A stretch of DNA of 64,000 bases from Candidatus Fermentithermobacillaceae bacterium (GCA_018052455.1 JAGPNE010000004.1:52882-116881), one strand, 5' to 3'; numbered from the stretch's first letter, positions 4,906 through 15,850 are shown. The notes: generated from the sequence alone by a model not told the origin. Numbers and translations are program-made.

Positions 4906-5358
4906 GTGGAGTTTCCCACTAAACAGTTTGGAGTCATACATATAAGAGAAGACCAGGTCATAAACTTCCCAGAAGGTCTTATTGGCTTTCAATCATGCAA
5001 GAGGTTCTTTGTTTTCGACCTCGACGAATTTGGGGTTTTCAAATGGCTCCAGAACCTGGACGACGAGTCTTTGGGGTTCGTAATCCTAGACCCTAGACTC
5101 TTGTTTAAAGACTACGATCCCGAGTTTGTCGCAAGAGATCTAGAGATTCTGGAGGCTTCCAGCCCTGGGGATCTCGTACTCCTTTCGGTAGTTACTCTGC
5201 CGGAGGAGGTAAGAGATATGACCGTCAATCTGCAAGCACCTCTTGTGATAAACCCGTCGAAACGTCTAGGCCGGCAGGTAATAACCATTTCGCAGGAGTA
5301 TAGTACTAAGCACAACGTATTCGTGCATGTAAAGAATCTCATGAAGAGGACGGGCTAG
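4906..5358 (+). CDS. fliW: Flagellar assembly factor FliW
   Basis: T.QFG...I.FPEGLIGF, WLQ, DP, MTVNLQAPLVIN motifs. Confidence 0.93.
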   Translation: MEFPTKQFGVIHIREDQVINFPEGLIGFQSCKRFFVFDLDEFGVFKWLQNLDDESLGFVILDPRLLFKDYDPEFVARDLEILEASSPGDLVLLSVVTLPEEVRDMTVNLQAPLVINPSKRLGRQVITISQEYSTKHNVFVHVKNLMKRTG

Positions 5359-5360
5359 AT

Positions 5361-5615
5361 ATGCTTGTTCTATCAAGGAAGCAAGGCGAAGCAATACTGA
5401 TAGGTGACGACATTGTCATACGCGTTACAGAGATAAAAGGCAGAGGTTCTAAGGCGTTTGTTAAGCTGGGGATTGAAGCTCCGTCCGGAACCAAGATCTT
5501 GAGGGAAGAAGTAGAGATCGAGATTGCCACCGAGATGGCTTTAGCGAAAGATCCTGTTTTGGACTTGGAACGTCTGAAAAGCGAGTTTTTGAAAAGAGAA
5601 GATAAGGAAGAATAA
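5361..5615 (+). CDS. csrA: Carbon storage regulator CsrA
   Basis: MLVLSRKQGEAILIGDDI...VKLGIEAP...ILREE; adjacent to fliW. Confidence 0.93.
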   Translation: MLVLSRKQGEAILIGDDIVIRVTEIKGRGSKAFVKLGIEAPSGTKILREEVEIEIATEMALAKDPVLDLERLKSEFLKREDKEE

Positions 5616-7938: not shown

Positions 7939-8142
7939 TTACTCAGAAATTTTAGTCACTTCTGCAGCTTGCAGCCCTTTAGGGCCTTCGACGATTTCGA
8001 ACTCTACAAGATCGCCTTCGTTAAGCGTACGAAACCCTTCAGATTTGATTGCCGAATAGTGCACGAACACATCTGGACCATCGTCACGTTGAATAAAACC
8101 GAAGCCTTTTTGCGCGTTGAACCATTTCACTGTACCTTGCAT
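7939..8142 (-). CDS. csp: Cold-shock protein (CspA family)
   Basis: [17 protein letters not shown]...DVFVHYSAI...GFRTLNEG. Confidence 0.97.
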
Positions 8143-8216
8143 TGTGGGACATTCCTCCTAATTCCCGACGATGGGTCCCAACCCAACGTCTTTTGGAGCT
8201 TTAAGCTCGTGTTGCG

Positions 8217-8245
8217 AATATAGCATGATACAGAGAAAGAGTCAA
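8217..8245 (-). promoter_or_regulatory. Sigma-A promoter of the csp gene
   Basis: Minus strand TTGACT-17 bp-TATATT with extended -10 TG. Confidence 0.7.
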
Positions 8246-8298
8246 CAAGTATTTTAGGTTTTCTTGTGAGGGGTTGGGGAAAACGGTATAGAGACGTC

Positions 8299-8371
8299 TG
8301 TGGATACTGTGGACAATTATGTTGATAACCACTTAAATGCTATTTAATATTGTGCACAGTTGTGTGGATTG
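8299..8371. promoter_or_regulatory. Cluster of five DnaA-box-like 9-mers
   Basis: TGTGGATAC 8299, TGTGGACAA 8308, TGTTGATAA 8320, TTGTGCACA 8350, TGTGGATTG 8363, around an AT-rich palindrome. Confidence 0.6.
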
Positions 8372-8538
8372 CAGGTTCACACGTGTATGGGTTTGGCGTA
8401 TTATTGAATTGCGATGGGAATGACCCATAAAGGTAAATTGAACAGACTCGGAGAAGTTATTGCGTAGTCAAGAGAGATCCTTGGTTTTTTGGTGACGCCC
8501 AAGGCAAAAGTAACGGTTACTTTGAGGAGGCATGCCAC

Positions 8539-9054
8539 ATGGAGATCAACGTAAGAGGTAAGAACATGAACGTAAGCCCCGCACTTCGGGAATATGCAGA
8601 GAAGAAATTGTCCAAACTGGAGAAATACGTGAGGCAGGATTCTTGTTTGTGCCAGGTGATGTTTTCAACTCAGCGGGGCAAGTATGTGGTTGAAGTTACG
8701 CTACCTCTGAATGGCATGATTTTGAGGGCGGAAGAGTCGGCTCAGGATGCGTTTGCCTCAGTAGATCTGGTTGTGGAGAAACTCGAGAGGCAGCTGGAGA
8801 AATACAAGACGAGACTGCTTAAGCGCGATAAGCAAGAGCAGCGATTGTCAGAGCCTGAGGAAGAACTCGAAACAGGACAGATTGTAAAGGTCAAGAGATT
8901 TGCTATGAAACCTATGATGCCTGAGGAAGCAGTAATGCAAATGGAGCTTCTAGGTCACGATTTCTTTGTTTTTGCAAACGGCGAAACAGGTTTGGTTAAC
9001 GTTATTTACAGACGCAAAGACGGCAACTTCGGTCTGATTGAACCTGAGATTTAG
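8539..9054 (+). CDS. hpf: Ribosome hibernation promoting factor (long HPF, YvyD type)
   Basis: MEINVRGKN...ALREYAEKKL, AEE...DAFASVDLVVEKLERQL.KYK, C-terminal KPM.PEEA..QMELLGHDFFVF. Confidence 0.95.
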   Translation: MEINVRGKNMNVSPALREYAEKKLSKLEKYVRQDSCLCQVMFSTQRGKYVVEVTLPLNGMILRAEESAQDAFASVDLVVEKLERQLEKYKTRLLKRDKQEQRLSEPEEELETGQIVKVKRFAMKPMMPEEAVMQMELLGHDFFVFANGETGLVNVIYRRKDGNFGLIEPEI

Positions 9055-9096
9055 AGTTTCTTAAGAGATTTGTGTATGTTAAGCGGGGGAGCCAGC

Positions 9097-10251
9097 TTGG
9101 AACAACCTAAGGTTACTGCAGTTATGTTTGAAGGCGGTAAACCACAAACCTCTCTAGATGCTAAAATCAAGAATATCCGGAAAGAGATCGCCTTGGACAC
9201 ACTGTCCAAGCTGGCTTTAGCGCCGGAAATCGACGAAATCATACTAGCAACAAATTATGAGGATCTTGCGCACGAGGCATCCGAGTTTGCCATTGTTGAC
9301 TTGGAGTCAAATGACATTAAGTTTCATTTCGGGCGCAGACTAAGAGAGATAATCGTCAACTATCGCTTGGATAACGTGTTGTACATGGGGGGAGTAGCTG
9401 CCCCCCTTGTGTATTCGGAGGAGTTTAACCAAGTTGCCCTCACGCTTAAGCAAACCAGAAATACAGTGATAATGAACAATGTCCAGTCTGCAGACCTCGT
9501 TGCGTTTACGCCCGCAAGGGCAATTGATGAAGTCGAACTGCCCGATAACGACAATGTACTGGGCAATCTGCTCCGTGAGATTGGTATGCGGCGGCTTCTT
9601 ATTCCTAATTCAGGTAGGGTGAACTTCGATATAGACACTCCAACTGACATCTTAATCCTTGGTCTGCACCCTCACTGCGGGGAAAGATCATCAAGGATCA
9701 TAGGCTCTCTGGATTGGCCTACTCAGAACCTGTGTGAGGCCCTGAGAGTACTTAGGGAAGAGTCGCGAGAAATAGCGGTGATAGGACGAGTTGGACCCGC
9801 GGTCATACAGTATATAAACTCGAACATGGTTCACAGAATGCGGGTGTTTTCCGAGGAGAGAGGTATGAAGGCCTTGGGCCGAGAAGAAAGAGGGCAAGTC
9901 GTATCGTTGTTGGGTTTCATGGTAGATGAGGTAGGCCCGAAGAGGTTTTTCGAGTACCTATCGCGTGTCTGCGACCTAGCTTTTATCGATACAAGAGTGA
10001 TGTTTGCTCATCTTGAGGGCCAAGTTTCGGATTGGGACAGGTTTTACTCAGACCTGGGCCAATATCAAGTAATCCAAAATGAGTGGGTTAGGGAGTTTAC
10101 GAAGAGTGCTGTTGAATGCCCAATTCCGGTTGTGCTCGGTGGACATAGCCTCGTAGCTGCCGGCCTTTGGATTATGGCGGAAATGGTCGTAAAGGAGAAA
10201 GAGGATTCAGGATATCGTCATAACACCGCAATTATGACCCCTTATAGCTGA
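9097..10251 (+). CDS. Uncharacterised protein with N-terminal CofC/nucleotidyltransferase-like (GT-A fold) domain
   Basis: FDIDTPTDI motif, IILATN, FHFG..L; TTG start after GGGGGAG; C-terminal domain not recognised. Confidence 0.5.
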   Translation: MEQPKVTAVMFEGGKPQTSLDAKIKNIRKEIALDTLSKLALAPEIDEIILATNYEDLAHEASEFAIVDLESNDIKFHFGRRLREIIVNYRLDNVLYMGGVAAPLVYSEEFNQVALTLKQTRNTVIMNNVQSADLVAFTPARAIDEVELPDNDNVLGNLLREIGMRRLLIPNSGRVNFDIDTPTDILILGLHPHCGERSSRIIGSLDWPTQNLCEALRVLREESREIAVIGRVGPAVIQYINSNMVHRMRVFSEERGMKALGREERGQVVSLLGFMVDEVGPKRFFEYLSRVCDLAFIDTRVMFAHLEGQVSDWDRFYSDLGQYQVIQNEWVREFTKSAVECPIPVVLGGHSLVAAGLWIMAEMVVKEKEDSGYRHNTAIMTPYS

Positions 10252-10283
10252 TTGGAACACTTTTTCAATCGGGAGTGTATAAA

Positions 10284-10925
10284 ATGGCCGGCAAGGATTA
10301 TACAGCTAGAGACTACGAGGATATCATCAAGAAGATAAATGACGTTTTGGATTGCCGAGTTTCGACCGGTGAGAACGACAGTATCGATGAAATCCATATT
10401 GTGGCACGGATAGGTCGGTCGCCTAAATACGTGGTACGAGATGTAGAATCTGCTGTTTTGGCGGCATCCGGGGAGAAAATCGACAGAACAAGGATCTCGA
10501 TTGTTCAAATGGCCGGTAATGAACCGAGCTTTACCTCCAGACCTAGACTTGTAGCTGTAGAACTTGTGACCAGTGAGTCTTCGGCTGTAGCCAGAGTAAA
10601 ACTCTCCTTGGGAGAGGAGGTTCGTCTAGGAGAGAGTGAAGGGATTGCCACGCCTACTAGGTGGGATTGGTTCTGCGCGGAAGCTACTGTCAATGCGCTG
10701 AGCCAGTTTTTCAGAGAAGGTGTGAAGATTTCTTTGAGGGACGTAAACGTATTTGATTCGAGGTCTCTGCGAACAGCGGTGGTAGCTCTGTGTGTCATTG
10801 AAGACGGCAGAGAATTGGTGCTAACGGGTTCGTGTCCTGTTTTATATGATGAAAGAGAAGCGGTAGTAAAGGCAACTCTTGATGCGGTCAATAGGAGGTT
10901 TCCGATGCTAACGGCAAATAGCTGA
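10284..10925 (+). CDS. Conserved hypothetical cytoplasmic protein; C-terminal half resembles a LeuA-type regulatory fold
   Basis: IDEIHIVA...RSPK.VVRDVES...RISIVQ, then two beta-rich repeats ending AEATVNAL and VKATLDAVNR. Confidence 0.6.
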   Translation: MAGKDYTARDYEDIIKKINDVLDCRVSTGENDSIDEIHIVARIGRSPKYVVRDVESAVLAASGEKIDRTRISIVQMAGNEPSFTSRPRLVAVELVTSESSAVARVKLSLGEEVRLGESEGIATPTRWDWFCAEATVNALSQFFREGVKISLRDVNVFDSRSLRTAVVALCVIEDGRELVLTGSCPVLYDEREAVVKATLDAVNRRFPMLTANS

Positions 10926-10952
10926 AATTAAATGAATTTTGCACCACTTATA

Positions 10953-10981
10953 GAAGGACTAATTGAAGCAGCGTTGAACAA
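10953..10981 (+). promoter_or_regulatory. Sigma-H-like promoter upstream of the small peptide gene
   Basis: GAAGGACTA-11 bp-GTTGAACAA (AGGA-N17-GAAC; consensus AGGA-N17/18-GAAT). Confidence 0.4.
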
Positions 10982-10989
10982 ATTACTAA

Positions 10990-11178
10990 GCCGACAGCCT
11001 GGTGACTTTCATCAGCGGAGTTAGATGAATCTGATCTAGCGGTTCAGATTCAGCCAGTTGACAGGGGGTTTTCAGGTGAGCAAGAAGGTTCTTAGGGTGA
11101 TTTTCGCCATCCTCACGCTCCTTTTGGCCGGAGCAGCGAACTTTCAACTAGGCTAAAGTTTCTGTCAGGGCTGTCGGC
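10990..11178 (+). ncRNA. Putative structured RNA enclosing the peptide ORF
   Basis: gccgacagcc 10990-10999 pairs with ggctgtcggc 11169-11178; ttgacagggg 11058-11067 pairs with tttctgtcag 11159-11168; perfect 9-bp hairpin 11026-11052. Confidence 0.5.
11076..11156 (+). CDS. 26-aa signal-peptide-like precursor MSKKVLRVIFAILTLLLAGAANFQLG (missing from ORF track)
   Basis: GTG start 7 nt after AGGGGG RBS, TAA at 11154-11156; basic n-region, hydrophobic h-region, LAG-A c-region. Confidence 0.8.
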   Translation: MSKKVLRVIFAILTLLLAGAANFQLG

Positions 11179-11200
11179 CCGGTCACGAGGTGTTCTAGCA

Positions 11201-12451
11201 TTGAACAAAGAGATTAAGGCCTTCGATGTCTATTTGTGGGGAATAGTTTGCCTCGGTATGGTCTTACTTTTTATGAATATCCCTGTCTTCGAGGGCTTGC
11301 TTCACTTCCTGGAAGTGGGTTTTCTCGGGGCTCTCATTGCTTTTGGTGAGACCCTGGCAATCCCATTTCCCAAGGGTAAAGGTACCGCATCTGTCGCTGC
11401 GCCCCTGATTTTTACTGTTATTGTTCTCCATGGTCCTGCCATTGGCATGTGGGTTGCAGCATTAGCTACTCTACGCAAAAGAGATCTGGCAGGGGAGGTT
11501 CCCATACGTCTGGTTCTTTTCAACAGAGGGATGCTAAGCATATGTGCCTATGGGTTCTCGACGGCCTACAGTCTTTTGGGAGGCGAGTTCGGATTTCTCG
11601 AGTTTCCTTCGGGTCTTCTAGGTTTCATATTGGCAGCAACTGTTTACACCATACTGAATGCGGTCATAATTGGAGAGGCACTATCGCTTCAGACCGGCCT
11701 GCCATTTTTGACCATCTGGCGCCAGAATATAGTCTGGATGCTACCTAACATGTTTGCTTTGTTTCCTCTGGGTGCCCTTATGGTTGTTGTCACAAAGCAA
11801 GCCGGGCCGCTTGTACTTCTACTGTTCTATTTGCCCTTGGTCGTAACTAAGATGTCTCTACAGAAATACGTGGATCTGAAAGAGACCTATGGCGAAATGG
11901 CTCAGGCTCTAGGTACGGCTGTAGACGCGAGGGATCCATATACCCAAGGACATTCGATAAGGGTATCGGAATACTCTGGGCTATTAGGAAAAGAAATGGG
12001 ATTCGATGATGAAGAGGTTGATTTGCTGAAATATGTTGCGCTTCTGCACGATGTAGGCAAGGTGGGCATACCCGACAGCATTCTAAAGAAAACAGACTAT
12101 TTTACATACGAAGAATATCAAGAAATGAAGCGGCATGTTGATATAGGTGCAGATATCATTGGAGCTATGAAGATATTAGGCAAAGGCGAGGAATGGGTAA
12201 GATATCACCACGAAAGATGGGACGGCACAGGTTTCCCCAAGGGCTTACGTGGCGATGAAATACCTCTAGAAGCACGTATTATTGCCTGCGCGGATGCTTT
12301 TGACGCTATGACTACAGATAGGCCGTACAAAGAGAGAATGGACTACGAGGAAGCCAGAGAAGAGATTGTAAGGTGCAGCGGAACCCAGTTTGATCCCAAA
12401 GTGGTAGAAGCTATGCTCAAAGTCGTAGATGAAAAGATTTTGAGGAAGTGA
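11201..12451 (+). CDS. Membrane-anchored HD-GYP cyclic di-GMP phosphodiesterase
   Basis: Multi-TM N-terminal ~220 aa; ARDPYTQGHSIRV, LLHDVGK, HHERWDGTGFP, ADAFDAMTTDRPY. Confidence 0.88.
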   Translation: MNKEIKAFDVYLWGIVCLGMVLLFMNIPVFEGLLHFLEVGFLGALIAFGETLAIPFPKGKGTASVAAPLIFTVIVLHGPAIGMWVAALATLRKRDLAGEVPIRLVLFNRGMLSICAYGFSTAYSLLGGEFGFLEFPSGLLGFILAATVYTILNAVIIGEALSLQTGLPFLTIWRQNIVWMLPNMFALFPLGALMVVVTKQAGPLVLLLFYLPLVVTKMSLQKYVDLKETYGEMAQALGTAVDARDPYTQGHSIRVSEYSGLLGKEMGFDDEEVDLLKYVALLHDVGKVGIPDSILKKTDYFTYEEYQEMKRHVDIGADIIGAMKILGKGEEWVRYHHERWDGTGFPKGLRGDEIPLEARIIACADAFDAMTTDRPYKERMDYEEAREEIVRCSGTQFDPKVVEAMLKVVDEKILRK

Positions 12452-12455
12452 TCCA

Positions 12456-13040
12456 TTGTTCCTAACCGTTGTAGCTGTTTCCCTTGTACTTGGCCTGGTT
12501 TCGGGAGGCAAGATCTCTCATCTTGGTGACATAGATCTCGATAGGTTAGGGTGGATTGTGGGGTCCTTTTTAGTAAAGATTGGATCGAACAAGTTATTGA
12601 GCGGGAGGGTGGAGCCATCTTCCAAGGTTTGTCTTGCTCTAAGTCTAGTCACCTACCTCATGCTGTTTTACGGTCTTTGCCCAAATCTAAGATTCCCTGG
12701 CTTTCGCGTGCTTACCTTCGGGACTTTTTTGAACTTTATTGTCATACTAGCCAACGGAGGTAGAATGCCTGTCGATTTGTCCCCACTCGGAGCTGATGTC
12801 TTAAATAGCCAAATACCCGTGCTCGTCTCTAGCTTCACCCACTGTGAGATGGGAGATCGCACAAAGTTAAGATGTCTGGCTGACATATTTTCCTCTGAGT
12901 TTCTTTCCAAAACACCTACCACTTTCAGCCTGGGTGACATACTCATGGCCGTAGGGATCTTCGCGTTCATAATGAATGTGATGCACGCGGGTTTTCTCGA
13001 GGGACAAAAGAATGGTAGAATTAAGGGCAATGAGAGCTAA
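12456..13040 (+). CDS. DUF5317-type membrane protein, putative signal-peptidase-II-like aspartic peptidase
   Basis: GG...L, GTFLNFIVILANGGRMPV, LADIF (D143), FSLGDILMAVG (D161). Confidence 0.7.
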   Translation: MFLTVVAVSLVLGLVSGGKISHLGDIDLDRLGWIVGSFLVKIGSNKLLSGRVEPSSKVCLALSLVTYLMLFYGLCPNLRFPGFRVLTFGTFLNFIVILANGGRMPVDLSPLGADVLNSQIPVLVSSFTHCEMGDRTKLRCLADIFSSEFLSKTPTTFSLGDILMAVGIFAFIMNVMHAGFLEGQKNGRIKGNES

Positions 13041-13090
13041 GGAAAGCTACCTGACCGCTTTTGAGTTTGCACGCAGAAAAGGAGATATGT

Positions 13091-15850
13091 ATGTCAATTT
13101 TGAAGAATCTTTTCAACTCCAACGACCGGGAGCTCCGAAAAATAGGACCAACTGTCGATTCAGTGGCAAGATTTGAGCCTACTTTTGAGCGAACCTCCGA
13201 CTCGGACCTCCAGCGCAAGACAGGTGAGTTTCGGGAACGTATTTCCAGGGGTGAGCCCATGGACAAAATTCTTCCCGAAGCCTTTGCGGTTGTTAGGGAG
13301 GTCTCCAGACGTGTACTCGATATGCGGCATTTTGACGTACAAATACTAGGTGGTGTTGTTCTTCATCAGGGACGGATTGCAGAGATGCAAACTGGTGAAG
13401 GGAAAACGCTTGTGGCGACTCTTCCGGCATATTTGAACGCGATAGGAGGCGCTACCGTACACGTAGTTACGGTCAACGATTATCTGGCGAAACGAGACAG
13501 GGAATGGATGGGTCAAATATATAGGTTTCTAGGCCTGGATGTAGGACTTGTGATCCCTGGTATGGAAGTGGCGCAGAAGAAGGCCTCGTATTCCTGCCCT
13601 ATCATCTACGGCACAAATACAGAATTTGGTTTTGACTATCTTAGAGATAATATGGCTTGGCGGAAGGATGACCTTGTTCAAAGCCCCCTAAACTACGCCA
13701 TAATCGACGAGGTTGACTCAATTTTGATAGATGAGGCTAGAACCCCTCTCATAATTTCTGGCCGCGGTGAGGGCACTACAGACAAGTACATAAGATTTCG
13801 GGATCTTGCTCGTATGCTAAAACGAGATAAGCACTATACAGTTGACGAGAAGGCGAAAACGATTGTCTTGACTGATGAAGGCATTGAGAGAACAGAAGAA
13901 TGGCTGGGTATAGATGACCTTTCAGACGAGGGAAACATAGGGTTGGAACACTATGTTAAGCAGGCTTTAAGGGCTAAAGAACTGATGCATCGCGATGTTG
14001 ACTACGTGGTGAAAAACGGAGAAGTTTTGATAGTTGATGAATTTACCGGCCGTATTCTTGTGGGCAGAAGATTTTCAGATGGTCTTCATCAGGCAATTGA
14101 AGCAAAAGAAGGCGTAGAGATAAAAGAGGAAAGTGATACTCTTGCTACCATAACTGTCCAGAACTTTTTCAGGATGTACGACAAACTTTCGGGCATGACA
14201 GGAACTGCCGCGACCGAAGAACCAGAATTTCTAGAAATATACGGCTTGGACGTTGTATGTATTCCGCCAAACAAGTCCCTAATAAGGACCAATATGCCTG
14301 ATTCAATTTGGAAGACCGAAGGTGCCAAGTTCGAGGCTGTCGTAGAAGAAATTGACCGTATGCATCAAGTCGCGCGGCCTGTCCTTGTGGGCACACGTTC
14401 TGTGGAGAAATCGGAGATGCTGTCGGCAATGCTCAAAAGGAGAGGCATTGACCATGAAGTTCTTAACGCCAAGCACCACGAACGTGAAGCGGAAATAGTG
14501 GCTCAGGCTGGAAGAAAAGGCTCAGTGACCATTGCAACTAACATGGCTGGGCGGGGAACTGATATACTCCTTGGCGGCAATCCTGACTTCATGGCGCGTT
14601 CAACTCTCAGAAAAGAAGGATATGATGCTGACGTGGTTTCTGTCGCTGCGGAGAAAGTCCTTCCCCAAGCAATGCTTGCGAGAATAGAGGCAGGCACAAC
14701 TGACGAGCATATTGAAGCGATTCTTGCGGCCAGAGACAGGTACAAAGAGCTTTTTGAGCAGTTCAAGAAGGTGACTGATGAAGAACATGAGGAAGTTGTA
14801 TCTCTGGGCGGTCTGCATGTGCTTGGTACAGAACGTCATGAAGCCCGGCGTATAGATAACCAGCTGCGAGGTAGGGCTGGTAGGCAGGGAGATCCGGGCT
14901 CATCGAGATTCTATCTCTCCTTGGATGACGAACTTATGCGGCTATTTGGGGGAGACCTCATAAGCGGTGTTATGGAGAAAGTAGGGTTCTCGGACGACGA
15001 GGCCATAGAACATCCTTTGATCACCAAGTCTGTAGAAACGGCTCAGAAGCGTATTGAGGCGCACAACTTTTCCATAAGGAAAAATGTATTAGAATACGAC
15101 AACGTTCTGAACAAGCAGCGCGAGGTCATATACTCTCAAAGACGCCAGGTACTTGAGTTTGATGACCTTTCAGATATTGTAAGGGGTATGATTGCAGGAA
15201 CAGTAGAAAGAGGCTTTGGTGTTTTCTGGAATCAGGGTGAAAGGAACCATGAGGCAGATACAGATGGGCTTGTTTCTTATCTGAAAGAGTTAATGCCGGC
15301 TGCAGACTTTAGAAAAGTCCTAGATTCTGCTGGTTCGAGACAGGCTGCTCTAGACGCAGTCATGGAGGTTTTCAGCGAGGGCTATAAGGAAAAGGCGGAG
15401 ATGTTAGGGCCCAATCTAAACGAGGTACAGCGGCTGATACTTCTTAGAGTGGTTGACCAAAAATGGATTGACCAGTTACGTGCAATGGAGGGTCTGCGTG
15501 AAGGCATTGGCTTAAGGGCGTATGGTCAAAGAGACCCTCTGCTTGAATATCAAAAAGAAGGCTATGACCTTTTTCAGAACATGATTGAGAACATTGAGAA
15601 AGATACTGTCGCCTATTTCTACAGGGTAACCGTATCCAAAGAAAGAGGCGTGCGAGCTGCCGGAGATGGCCAAGGAGCCGCAGGACCGGTAAGGGTAATA
15701 AGACTTACGGGGCCTCAATCTCAAGATACCGAGGGCCGGGAACAGGTAAGACCTGGGCCAGTTAAGTCCGGGAAAAAGGTGGGACGAAACGATCCCTGCC
15801 CATGTGGTAGTGGAAAGAAGTACAAGAACTGTTGTGGAAAACTTGGATAA
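13091..15850 (+). CDS. secA: Preprotein translocase ATPase SecA
   Basis: AEMQTGEGKT, IIDEVDSILIDEARTPLIIS, TIATNMAGRGTDI, C-terminal GRNDPCPCGSGKKYKNCCG. Confidence 0.98.
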   Translation: MSILKNLFNSNDRELRKIGPTVDSVARFEPTFERTSDSDLQRKTGEFRERISRGEPMDKILPEAFAVVREVSRRVLDMRHFDVQILGGVVLHQGRIAEMQTGEGKTLVATLPAYLNAIGGATVHVVTVNDYLAKRDREWMGQIYRFLGLDVGLVIPGMEVAQKKASYSCPIIYGTNTEFGFDYLRDNMAWRKDDLVQSPLNYAIIDEVDSILIDEARTPLIISGRGEGTTDKYIRFRDLARMLKRDKHYTVDEKAKTIVLTDEGIERTEEWLGIDDLSDEGNIGLEHYVKQALRAKELMHRDVDYVVKNGEVLIVDEFTGRILVGRRFSDGLHQAIEAKEGVEIKEESDTLATITVQNFFRMYDKLSGMTGTAATEEPEFLEIYGLDVVCIPPNKSLIRTNMPDSIWKTEGAKFEAVVEEIDRMHQVARPVLVGTRSVEKSEMLSAMLKRRGIDHEVLNAKHHEREAEIVAQAGRKGSVTIATNMAGRGTDILLGGNPDFMARSTLRKEGYDADVVSVAAEKVLPQAMLARIEAGTTDEHIEAILAARDRYKELFEQFKKVTDEEHEEVVSLGGLHVLGTERHEARRIDNQLRGRAGRQGDPGSSRFYLSLDDELMRLFGGDLISGVMEKVGFSDDEAIEHPLITKSVETAQKRIEAHNFSIRKNVLEYDNVLNKQREVIYSQRRQVLEFDDLSDIVRGMIAGTVERGFGVFWNQGERNHEADTDGLVSYLKELMPAADFRKVLDSAGSRQAALDAVMEVFSEGYKEKAEMLGPNLNEVQRLILLRVVDQKWIDQLRAMEGLREGIGLRAYGQRDPLLEYQKEGYDLFQNMIENIEKDTVAYFYRVTVSKERGVRAAGDGQGAAGPVRVIRLTGPQSQDTEGREQVRPGPVKSGKKVGRNDPCPCGSGKKYKNCCGKLG

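Follow-up and report, generated by a model that had tools for sequence, protein, structure and literature searches.

Positions 10990-11178 of the 64,000-nucleotide (nt) stretch of Candidatus Fermentithermobacillaceae bacterium DNA analysed here (GCA_018052455.1 JAGPNE010000004.1:52882-116881; the window) are best explained as the 5′ module of an operon mRNA that comprises a leader, a gene for a tiny peptide, a MASE9-like HD-GYP gene for an enzyme that degrades cyclic di-GMP (c-di-GMP), and a DUF5317 gene. Comparison with homologous loci shows that the module carries a plus-strand RNA structure under selection, consisting of an outer helix (P1), a hairpin (P2), AGCGG motifs, and a coding mini-open reading frame (ORF), and that this structure is tied to one gene family. 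P1 closes a clamp around the peptide ORF, its 5′ arm lying before the ORF and its 3′ arm just ahead of the HD-GYP ribosome-binding site, an arrangement that had been proposed in a first-pass annotation of the window and that the homologues identify as a genuine, selected fold. On the evidence of these sequences, many Bacillota conserve this mRNA structure, which had not been catalogued before. The Rfam search suggested by the annotation placed the leader in no known family: in positions 8000-14000 of the window, Rfam 15 gave no match at E ≤ 1 except an unrelated one to the cspA thermoregulator, the c-di-GMP-I and -II families being among those searched, and 10 homologous loci gave none at E ≤ 5.

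P1 joins the 5′ arm GCCGACAGCC (10990-10999, + strand) to the 3′ arm GGCTGTCGGC (11169-11178, + strand), its exact reverse complement, through 10 Watson-Crick base pairs (bp), with a possible extra wobble T11000·G11168. This perfect outer helix is present where the annotation had placed it, and it is conserved. Homologues were gathered without the arms as a search criterion, by BLAST in relatives, by a metagenome pattern that left the arms out, and through orthologous HD-GYP loci. BLAST of the gap upstream of the HD-GYP gene against 40 relatives gave matches in eight genomes from three genera, with the similarity setting in almost exactly at 10990, and every sequence returned by the metagenome scan, which used AGCGGAG plus the hairpin as its pattern, contains both arms. 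Of 210 genomes in the class, 147 contain orthologues of the HD-GYP membrane domain, and P1 and P2 recur upstream of these genes. Nearly all the loci read there (30 from the family, 20 at class level, and 20 at phylum level) share the same layout, in which the 5′ arm is followed by AGCGGAG, a hairpin whose loop displays AGCG, a strong Shine-Dalgarno sequence, an ORF of 24-26 codons, the 3′ arm, and the HD-GYP ribosome-binding site.

The two arms of P1 change together across lineages: the window's genus has GCCGACAGCC / GGCTGTCGGC, and other lineages have GGCCGGCGGC / GCCGCCGGCC, GCCGGCAGTT / AACTGCCGGC, AACCGGCAGCC / GGCTGCCGGTT, GGACCGGCGATG / CATCGCCGGTCC, GGGACACCAGCAC / GTGCTGGTGTCCC, and AAAAAGGCCGATTTTTAA / TTAAAAATCGGCCTTTTT. 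In a plain MAFFT alignment of 43 sequences, built independently of any covariance model and scored over 11 P1 pairs, 90.8% of cells hold standard pairs and 10 of the 11 pairs vary at both positions, with 82 compensatory cells against 30.9±4.3 in shuffles; none of 500 shuffles reached the observed value of any of five measures, and sliding the partner strand by 1-3 columns lowered pairing to 27-47%. A covariance model built from 23 family sequences was then used to align 68 loci. In this second alignment, which leans toward the model, P1 is 95.6% and P2 88.6% paired, all 16 modelled pairs show double changes, and the two helices together hold 228 compensatory cells (65±6.7 in shuffles, 0/500 as high). 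RNAalifold predicts both P1 and P2 from the 68 loci unaided, and the plain alignment agrees independently for P1. At class level, the best long-range stems reach a mean score of 35.9, compared with 22.5±3.3 for shuffles. The covariation in homologues that the annotation had proposed as a check is thus found in both helices, and we regard this comparative evidence for the outer helix and the hairpin as decisive.

Folding energies add little to this. The 189-nt stretch alone folds with z = -2.96 (0/200 shuffles as good), but with 64 and 37 nt of flanking sequence the value falls to z = -0.71 and the signal is gone; thermodynamics alone is therefore weak evidence for the fold and decides nothing. 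P1 itself has an energy of about -20 kcal/mol and a pairing probability of 0.65-0.98 in each of 33 homologues for which partition-function folds were computed, and its contiguous length ranges from 9 to 17 bp (median 12, 43 loci).

The same data bear on whether the arms act in RNA or in DNA. As inverted repeats, they could be recombinase sites of an invertible switch or paired operator half-sites; the arms are invariant within three genera, their core (G/A)CCG(G/A)C is strongly conserved throughout the phylum, and invertible switches lie upstream of c-di-GMP genes in Clostridioides difficile. We nevertheless give this explanation almost no credence. Mismatched cells in the P1 core show a G·U bias on one strand (12 G·T/T·G, compared with 2 A·C), and because this bias lies on the plus strand, P1 is read as a plus-strand RNA and not as a minus-strand RNA or a repeat in DNA. 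In all loci that were extracted and oriented, the element points the same way relative to the HD-GYP gene, the segment carries a conserved and correctly oriented coding ORF, and none of the neighbor genes with a Pfam match was identified as encoding a recombinase or DNA-binding regulator (the neighbors being flagellar genes, hpf, two genes of unknown function, and those for HD-GYP, DUF5317, secA, and prfB). In most lineages the arm core is GCCGGC, a palindrome, so that a small local hairpin (e.g., GUCGGCUGCCGGCUGAC in one genus) or intermolecular pairing is also possible.

The covariance model finds the element in 71 of 210 genomes and 44 of 109 genera of the class and, in an even sample of the phylum, in 54 of 401 genomes and 43 of 278 genera. 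Its E-values are rough, and these figures are lower bounds, a divergent copy in Alkaliphilus having been missed. Genomes with the element carry a single copy, which lies immediately upstream of the HD-GYP gene wherever coordinates were compared, save for one genome (G043) in which three copies lie on three contigs; since each of the three adjoins one HD-GYP paralogue, the whole module duplicates as a unit. The copy that the model misses, in the cultured Alkaliphilus peptidifermentans (GCA_900101495.1; FMUS01000014.1; locus L142, 4643-4893), has the same layout within a 250-nt gap between the gene for a 213-amino acid (aa) homologue of the protein encoded upstream in the window and a MASE9-HD-GYP gene. 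Its P1 is a perfect 12-bp helix unrelated in sequence to that of the window, UUUAGAUCGACU ... AGUCGAUCUAAA (also written TTTAGATCGACT / AGTCGATCTAAA), and its leader contains AGCGAAG, a hairpin with UCUAGCGUC in the loop, and GGGGAGG ahead of an ORF of 21 codons. Downstream in this species lies just a 54-aa ORF, with no gene called as DUF5317.

Inside P1, the leader of the window presents a first, single-stranded copy of the AGCGG motif within AGCGGAG (11014-11020, + strand), which is invariant among members of the window's family, and then P2 (11026-11052, + strand), in which TGAATCTGA (11026-11034) pairs with TCAGATTCA (11044-11052) around the loop TCTAGCGGT, with a second AGCGG copy at 11038-11042. 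The annotated perfect 9-bp hairpin is borne out by the homologues, in which all six modelled P2 pairs change on both sides. The stem sequences of P2 differ wholly between lineages (UGAAUCUGA, UUGUCCGGA, CACUUUGCUC, CCCGGCGC, and CCCACCAC), and the loop, of 7-12 nt, keeps (U/G)AGCG(G/A) while the stems vary. Leaders hold on average 2.43 copies of AGCG[AG], compared with 0.28 in shuffles (about ninefold), at a density about 23-fold that of the rest of the element, and 63 of 68 have two or more; the extended consensus is (U/G)AGCGG(A/U)(G/U). One class-level locus has an expanded leader with a P1 span of 260 nt and four to five GAGCG(G/A) copies, an arrangement that resembles a binding-site array. 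In many leaders P2 is enclosed by a third helix (e.g., CGGUU/AACCG), which stops 2-6 nt short of the Shine-Dalgarno sequence and for which no consistent definition was reached.

Other readings of the leader interior were set aside. A csrA gene lies nearby, but CsrA sites were rejected, GGA being kept in neither the loop copy nor the G-run Shine-Dalgarno sequence. A mini-ORF after AGCGGAG (MNLI* in the window) is conserved in neither frame nor start, and a 30-codon ORF across the 5′ arm (10932-11024) is in a different frame in the sister species.

The ORF enclosed by P1, MSKKVLRVIFAILTLLLAGAANFQLG (11076-11156, + strand), has 26 codons, with a GTG start at 11076, a TAA stop at 11156, and AGGGGG upstream. 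An ORF of 24-26 aa with a strong Shine-Dalgarno sequence is conserved in all 43 loci analysed, the phylum as a whole retains its pattern M-x-[KR]...LAL-x-ALVLAGGA-x-[FW]Q-x-G, and variability at the three codon positions is 0.25, 0.11, and 0.41, so that by the pattern of substitution the ORF is shown to be truly coding. The peptide is small and hydrophobic and has the look of a precursor, of a signal peptide or pheromone, more than that of a toxin.

Beyond the stop codon lie 12 nt, the 10-nt 3′ arm, and a further 22 nt up to the HD-GYP start, which together make up the 44-nt intercistronic region of the window. Across the family the distance from P1 to the HD-GYP start is 14-30 nt. A ribosome at a stop codon covers about 9-10 nt beyond it, and the footprint of an initiating 30S subunit extends to about -20; with 12 nt on one side and 22 nt on the other, P1 of the window fits between the footprints of the terminating ribosome and the initiating subunit. 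The HD-GYP ribosome-binding site, which the annotation had placed close past the outer helix, is found there as GAGGTG (11187-11192) 8 nt after P1, followed by a TTG start at 11201 (11187-11203, + strand; both read directly from the sequence). No terminator-like site was found between 11157 and 11200. P1 plus a U-tract is absent as a terminator from the window's family, U-rich tails after the 3′ arm occurring in some distant lineages only, and a leader-peptide transcription attenuator was likewise rejected, there being no terminator hairpin with a U-tract after the ORF (11157-11200).

The opposite end of P1 lies close to a candidate promoter of the sigma-H type. A candidate -35 element, GAAGGACTA (10953-10961, + strand; pattern RnRGGD), and a candidate -10 element, GTTGAAC (10973-10979, + strand; pattern RnnGAAH), the latter 10 nt upstream of P1, form a bipartite motif that recurs in the upstream regions of the family: RnRGGD-N3, a spacer of 10-12 nt, and RnnGAAH are found in 27 of 28 distinct upstream regions of the window's family, compared with 0.85% of shuffled 60-mers. 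The motif ends 9-12 nt before P1, a distance fixed across nine genera, and it fits the Bacillus subtilis sigma-H consensus, RnAGGAwWW-N11-12-RnnGAATww. The genome encodes a sigH orthologue (358 bits against a cut-off of 294.8). We infer from this spacing a predicted transcription start at about 10988-10990, that is, at the first base of P1. Two other promoter readings were rejected. The 5′ arm as a sigma-D (sigma-28) -10 box (GCCGA...) leaves the complementary 3′ arm unexplained, and its upstream block fits poorly; the flagellin promoter candidate of this genome, GAAAGTCT-N-TTCGATAT, served for comparison, and the 12 occurrences of GCCGACAGC in the genome are no more than chance would give. 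Extracytoplasmic-function (ECF)-type (GAAC...CGAC) and sigma-A readings of the upstream block have the wrong spacing, as judged by eye.

Taken together, we favor, at a probability of about one in two, a reading in which P1 is a static clamp that joins the mRNA 5′ end to the spacer after the peptide stop codon, while the AGCGG motifs of the leader bind a factor. The clamp mechanism, inferred from sequence, would work as follows. In the window's family, transcription from the sigma-H-type promoter would begin within a few nt of P1 and give an mRNA with a double-stranded 5′ end. Lying between the ribosome footprints, the clamp could persist while both cistrons are translated. It would shield the 5′ end from 5′-end-dependent decay, as Bacillus 5′ stabilizers do, isolate the fold of the leader, and hold the end of the peptide cistron near both the leader and the HD-GYP ribosome-binding site. 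The AGCGG repeats would provide a binding platform for a trans-acting factor or ligand that sets peptide output; that the leader binds a factor of some kind is probable.

Several observations weigh against a static clamp. Outside the window's family, P1 often begins 0-45 nt after the end of the upstream gene, a gap that leaves no room for a promoter and makes co-transcription with that gene likely there; the 5′ arm may then be internal to a longer mRNA, where protection of a 5′ end would not apply. The geometry that would let P1 persist is not universal either. The stop codon and the 3′ arm are separated by 0-27 nt (median 11; 43 loci), with 10-12 nt in 10 loci and more than 12 in 18, but by 9 nt or less in 15, in which a terminating ribosome would invade P1. 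The core of P1 is conserved far beyond the needs of pairing, which points to sequence-specific recognition that a pure clamp would leave unexplained. Finally, a local hairpin would suffice for 5′ protection, and the enclosure of an ORF is left without explanation.

Alternatively, the whole leader may be a sensor, riboswitch-like or protein-binding, with P1 as its closing helix and AGCGGAG and the AGCGG loop as its recognition site. Binding of a partner, for which c-di-GMP or a breakdown product and the co-conserved 216-aa protein encoded upstream are candidates, would set translation of the peptide and, via P1, that of HD-GYP. This possibility overlaps with the clamp, from which it differs chiefly in that P1 is part of the sensor, and we hold it to be tenable though doubtful. 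The enrichment of AGCG[AG], the leaders with four to five copies, the fixed place of the motif in the P2 loop on stems that vary, and the nearly invariant P1 core all speak for it, and c-di-GMP turnover genes are classic riboswitch targets. Several points count on the other side: neither of the c-di-GMP families nor any other in Rfam matches, no conserved alternative pairing that could serve as an expression platform was found, and we know of no aptamer that encloses a translated ORF. In addition, two members from one family, with the P1 arms GGGACACCAGCAC / GTGCTGGTGTCCC, have no AGCGG motifs and yet keep P1, a P2-like hairpin, and the ORF.

The 216-aa protein (10275-10925, + strand) is co-conserved with the RNA module across the phylum, and one source names a homologue 'predicted nucleic-acid-binding protein', both of which are in keeping with a sensor. 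Its AlphaFold model has a mean predicted local distance difference test (pLDDT) score of 87.1 and contains two beta-beta-beta-alpha repeats. The best structural match of the model is the LeuA regulatory domain (E 2.8e-6; template-modelling (TM) score 0.43), followed by the tandem double-stranded RNA-binding domains of TRBP, R2D2, and MLE in RNA complexes (E 4e-4 to 1e-3). TM-scores to these double-stranded RNA-binding proteins are low, however (about 0.2 for the whole chain and about 0.5 for single domains), and the best match is an amino acid-binding domain. The predicted fold may mark the 216-aa protein as a candidate partner of the AGCGG motifs, as a lead and not a finding. Searches of the Protein Data Bank (PDB) by sequence with this protein and with the 393-aa protein encoded before it returned nothing useful.

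The position of the 3′ arm exactly in the intercistronic gap, and a helix that brackets a complete functional unit in the manner of the stalks flanking rRNAs, could also point to processing. If a double-strand-specific RNase cut P1, a stable peptide mini-mRNA of about 190 nt with paired ends would result, leaving the HD-GYP mRNA with a new and labile 5′ end, so that a single transcript would yield much peptide and little enzyme. Such a scheme would work equally where the module sits within a longer transcript. RNase III substrates, however, usually span about two helical turns, and the contiguous length of P1 falls below this; we consider cleavage of P1 distinctly unlikely.

Very unlikely, in our estimate, is the nested switch of the first-pass annotation, in which the post-stop segment would mask the Shine-Dalgarno sequence and the hairpin would compete with an alternative stem, to give a 5′-3′ clamped, translationally inert mRNA like those of type I toxins. 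All of its pairings are present in the window. An inner helix of six Watson-Crick pairs with flanking G·U pairs joins TGACAG (11059-11064) to CTGTCA (11162-11167); its 5′ strand (11058-11067, + strand) overlaps the peptide Shine-Dalgarno sequence AGGGGG (11063-11068), and both helices appear when the 189-nt RNA is folded to its centroid. The conserved 5′-3′ helix and the small, hydrophobic peptide would suit the switch as well. What is seen in the window is not kept elsewhere, however, since pairing of the Shine-Dalgarno sequence with the post-stop spacer is predicted in 2 of the 33 homologues folded (0.77 in the window's species, 0.57 in one close relative, and about 0 in the other 31, where its partner is a segment of the leader or ORF or it is largely unpaired). 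The spacer itself (11159-11168, + strand) varies in sequence and length between genera and forms either the 3′ strand of the inner helix or a weak extension of P1. In the sister species (89% identity) there is TGACGG for TGACAG, CTGCCGG for CTGTCAG, and CCCGGCAA for CCTGGTGA, substitutions that weaken the inner helix and create a P1 extension, CCCGGCA/TGCCGGGG.

The competing stem fares no better. TTCATC (11008-11013) is complementary to GATGAA (11024-11029), as the annotation had noted, and the latter overlaps the 5′ arm of P2 by 4 nt, but across 59 loci this hairpin, which would display AGCGGAG, does no better than shuffled flanks (mean z 0.07) and is not conserved. A competitor in the leader for the 3′ arm of P1 was also sought and rejected (mean z 0.14; 1 of 43 loci below -2). 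With no conserved competitor for the 3′ arm, no conserved inner helix, and no conserved TTCATC/GATGAA stem, there is no evidence for a switch, and of the two roles that had been offered, switch or stabilizing fold, the latter fits better.

The likeness to type I toxins is likewise best treated as an analogy. In hok/sok, with its fold-back inhibition, and in aapA1/IsoA1 of Helicobacter pylori, a helix between the 5′ end and the 3′ region encloses a short hydrophobic ORF, as P1 does. Here, however, sequestration of the Shine-Dalgarno sequence is not conserved, the 3′ arm precedes another cistron rather than an mRNA 3′ end, and no antisense RNA is evident from the sequence, in which no promoter-like site was found on the minus strand between 10200 and 12600. 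Type I loci are patchy in distribution, often multicopy, and without fixed neighbors, unlike this element, which holds a fixed gene order beside HD-GYP across the phylum, in single copy; and the peptide, as noted, has the look of a precursor.

Other known systems share single features with the module. The Bacillus 5′ stabilizers (ermC and aprE leaders, phage SP82) have their first transcript nt base-paired, which is their defining property and would be shared by the module if the predicted start is right; they are, however, local hairpins, whereas the partner strand lies about 170 nt downstream here, beyond a translated ORF. Long-range pairing at a cistron junction of a polycistronic mRNA is known from the ribosome-opened 'Min Jou' interaction between coat and replicase of the RNA phage MS2 and from long-range pseudoknots of ribosomal-protein operons (infC-rpmI-rplT), in which the downstream ribosome-binding site is paired; in the module it lies at least 8 nt outside the helix, which in most loci need not melt for translation. 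RNase III stalks bracket functional rRNA units by pairing on both sides, as P1 does its own unit, but P1 is much shorter. Leaders with repeated motifs (GGA for CsrA, (G/U)AG for TRAP and HutP, and the ACGR loops of guanidine-II) also carry a motif two to five times, once in a hairpin loop near the Shine-Dalgarno sequence, yet (U/G)AGCGG matches none of these, and the loop sizes in P2 do not fit ANTAR hexaloops.

In the window, the module lies at the end of a flagellar late-gene cluster of this metagenome-assembled Bacillota genome, with flgK, flgL, fliW, csrA, fliD, fliS, and fliT followed by hpf (8539-9054) and the genes for the 393-aa protein (9070-10251) and the 216-aa protein, both without a Pfam or NCBIfam match. 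A gap of 275 nt, containing the 26-codon ORF, separates the latter from the membrane HD-GYP gene (11201-12451), which has an HD_5 domain (E 2e-36) and a MASE9 match just below cut-off. The DUF5317 gene (12456-13040) follows, for which a literature search found no papers, and then secA and prfB. The fliW-csrA pair occupies 4906-5615 (+ strand; csrA at 5361-5615), and the flagellin gene elsewhere in the genome (contig C6, ~930-960) has the sigma-D-like promoter given above and a leader with two GGA-containing sites, a combination that resembles the hag/CsrA system of B. subtilis. The cspA thermoregulator match (8000-8235, - strand), upstream of hpf on the opposite strand, is sub-threshold (38.5 bits, gathering score 78; E 2e-7) and is truncated at the boundary of the searched segment.

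Elements such as structured leaders and long-distance mRNA interactions are familiar; less usual is a covariation-supported helix that brackets a translated ORF, is found phylum-wide, and has no entry in Rfam. The conserved operon that it marks consists of unstudied parts, namely the 216-aa protein, the tiny peptide, the MASE9-type HD-GYP enzyme, and DUF5317. Both arms of P1, the loop of P2, and the AGCGG motifs offer handles for study, and the occurrence of the same layout in the cultured A. peptidifermentans makes mutational, probing, and binding experiments feasible. If the leader is a sensor, it would be a new class of regulatory RNA in the c-di-GMP signaling of Gram-positive anaerobes. 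A more far-reaching version, which we think rather unlikely, is that of a Bacillota-wide class whose closing helix encloses a translated mini-gene, which senses a signal through its AGCGG motifs and co-ordinates a secreted peptide with an HD-GYP enzyme that may perceive that peptide; if true, the module would be the RNA-level control point of an undescribed peptide-to-c-di-GMP signaling module.

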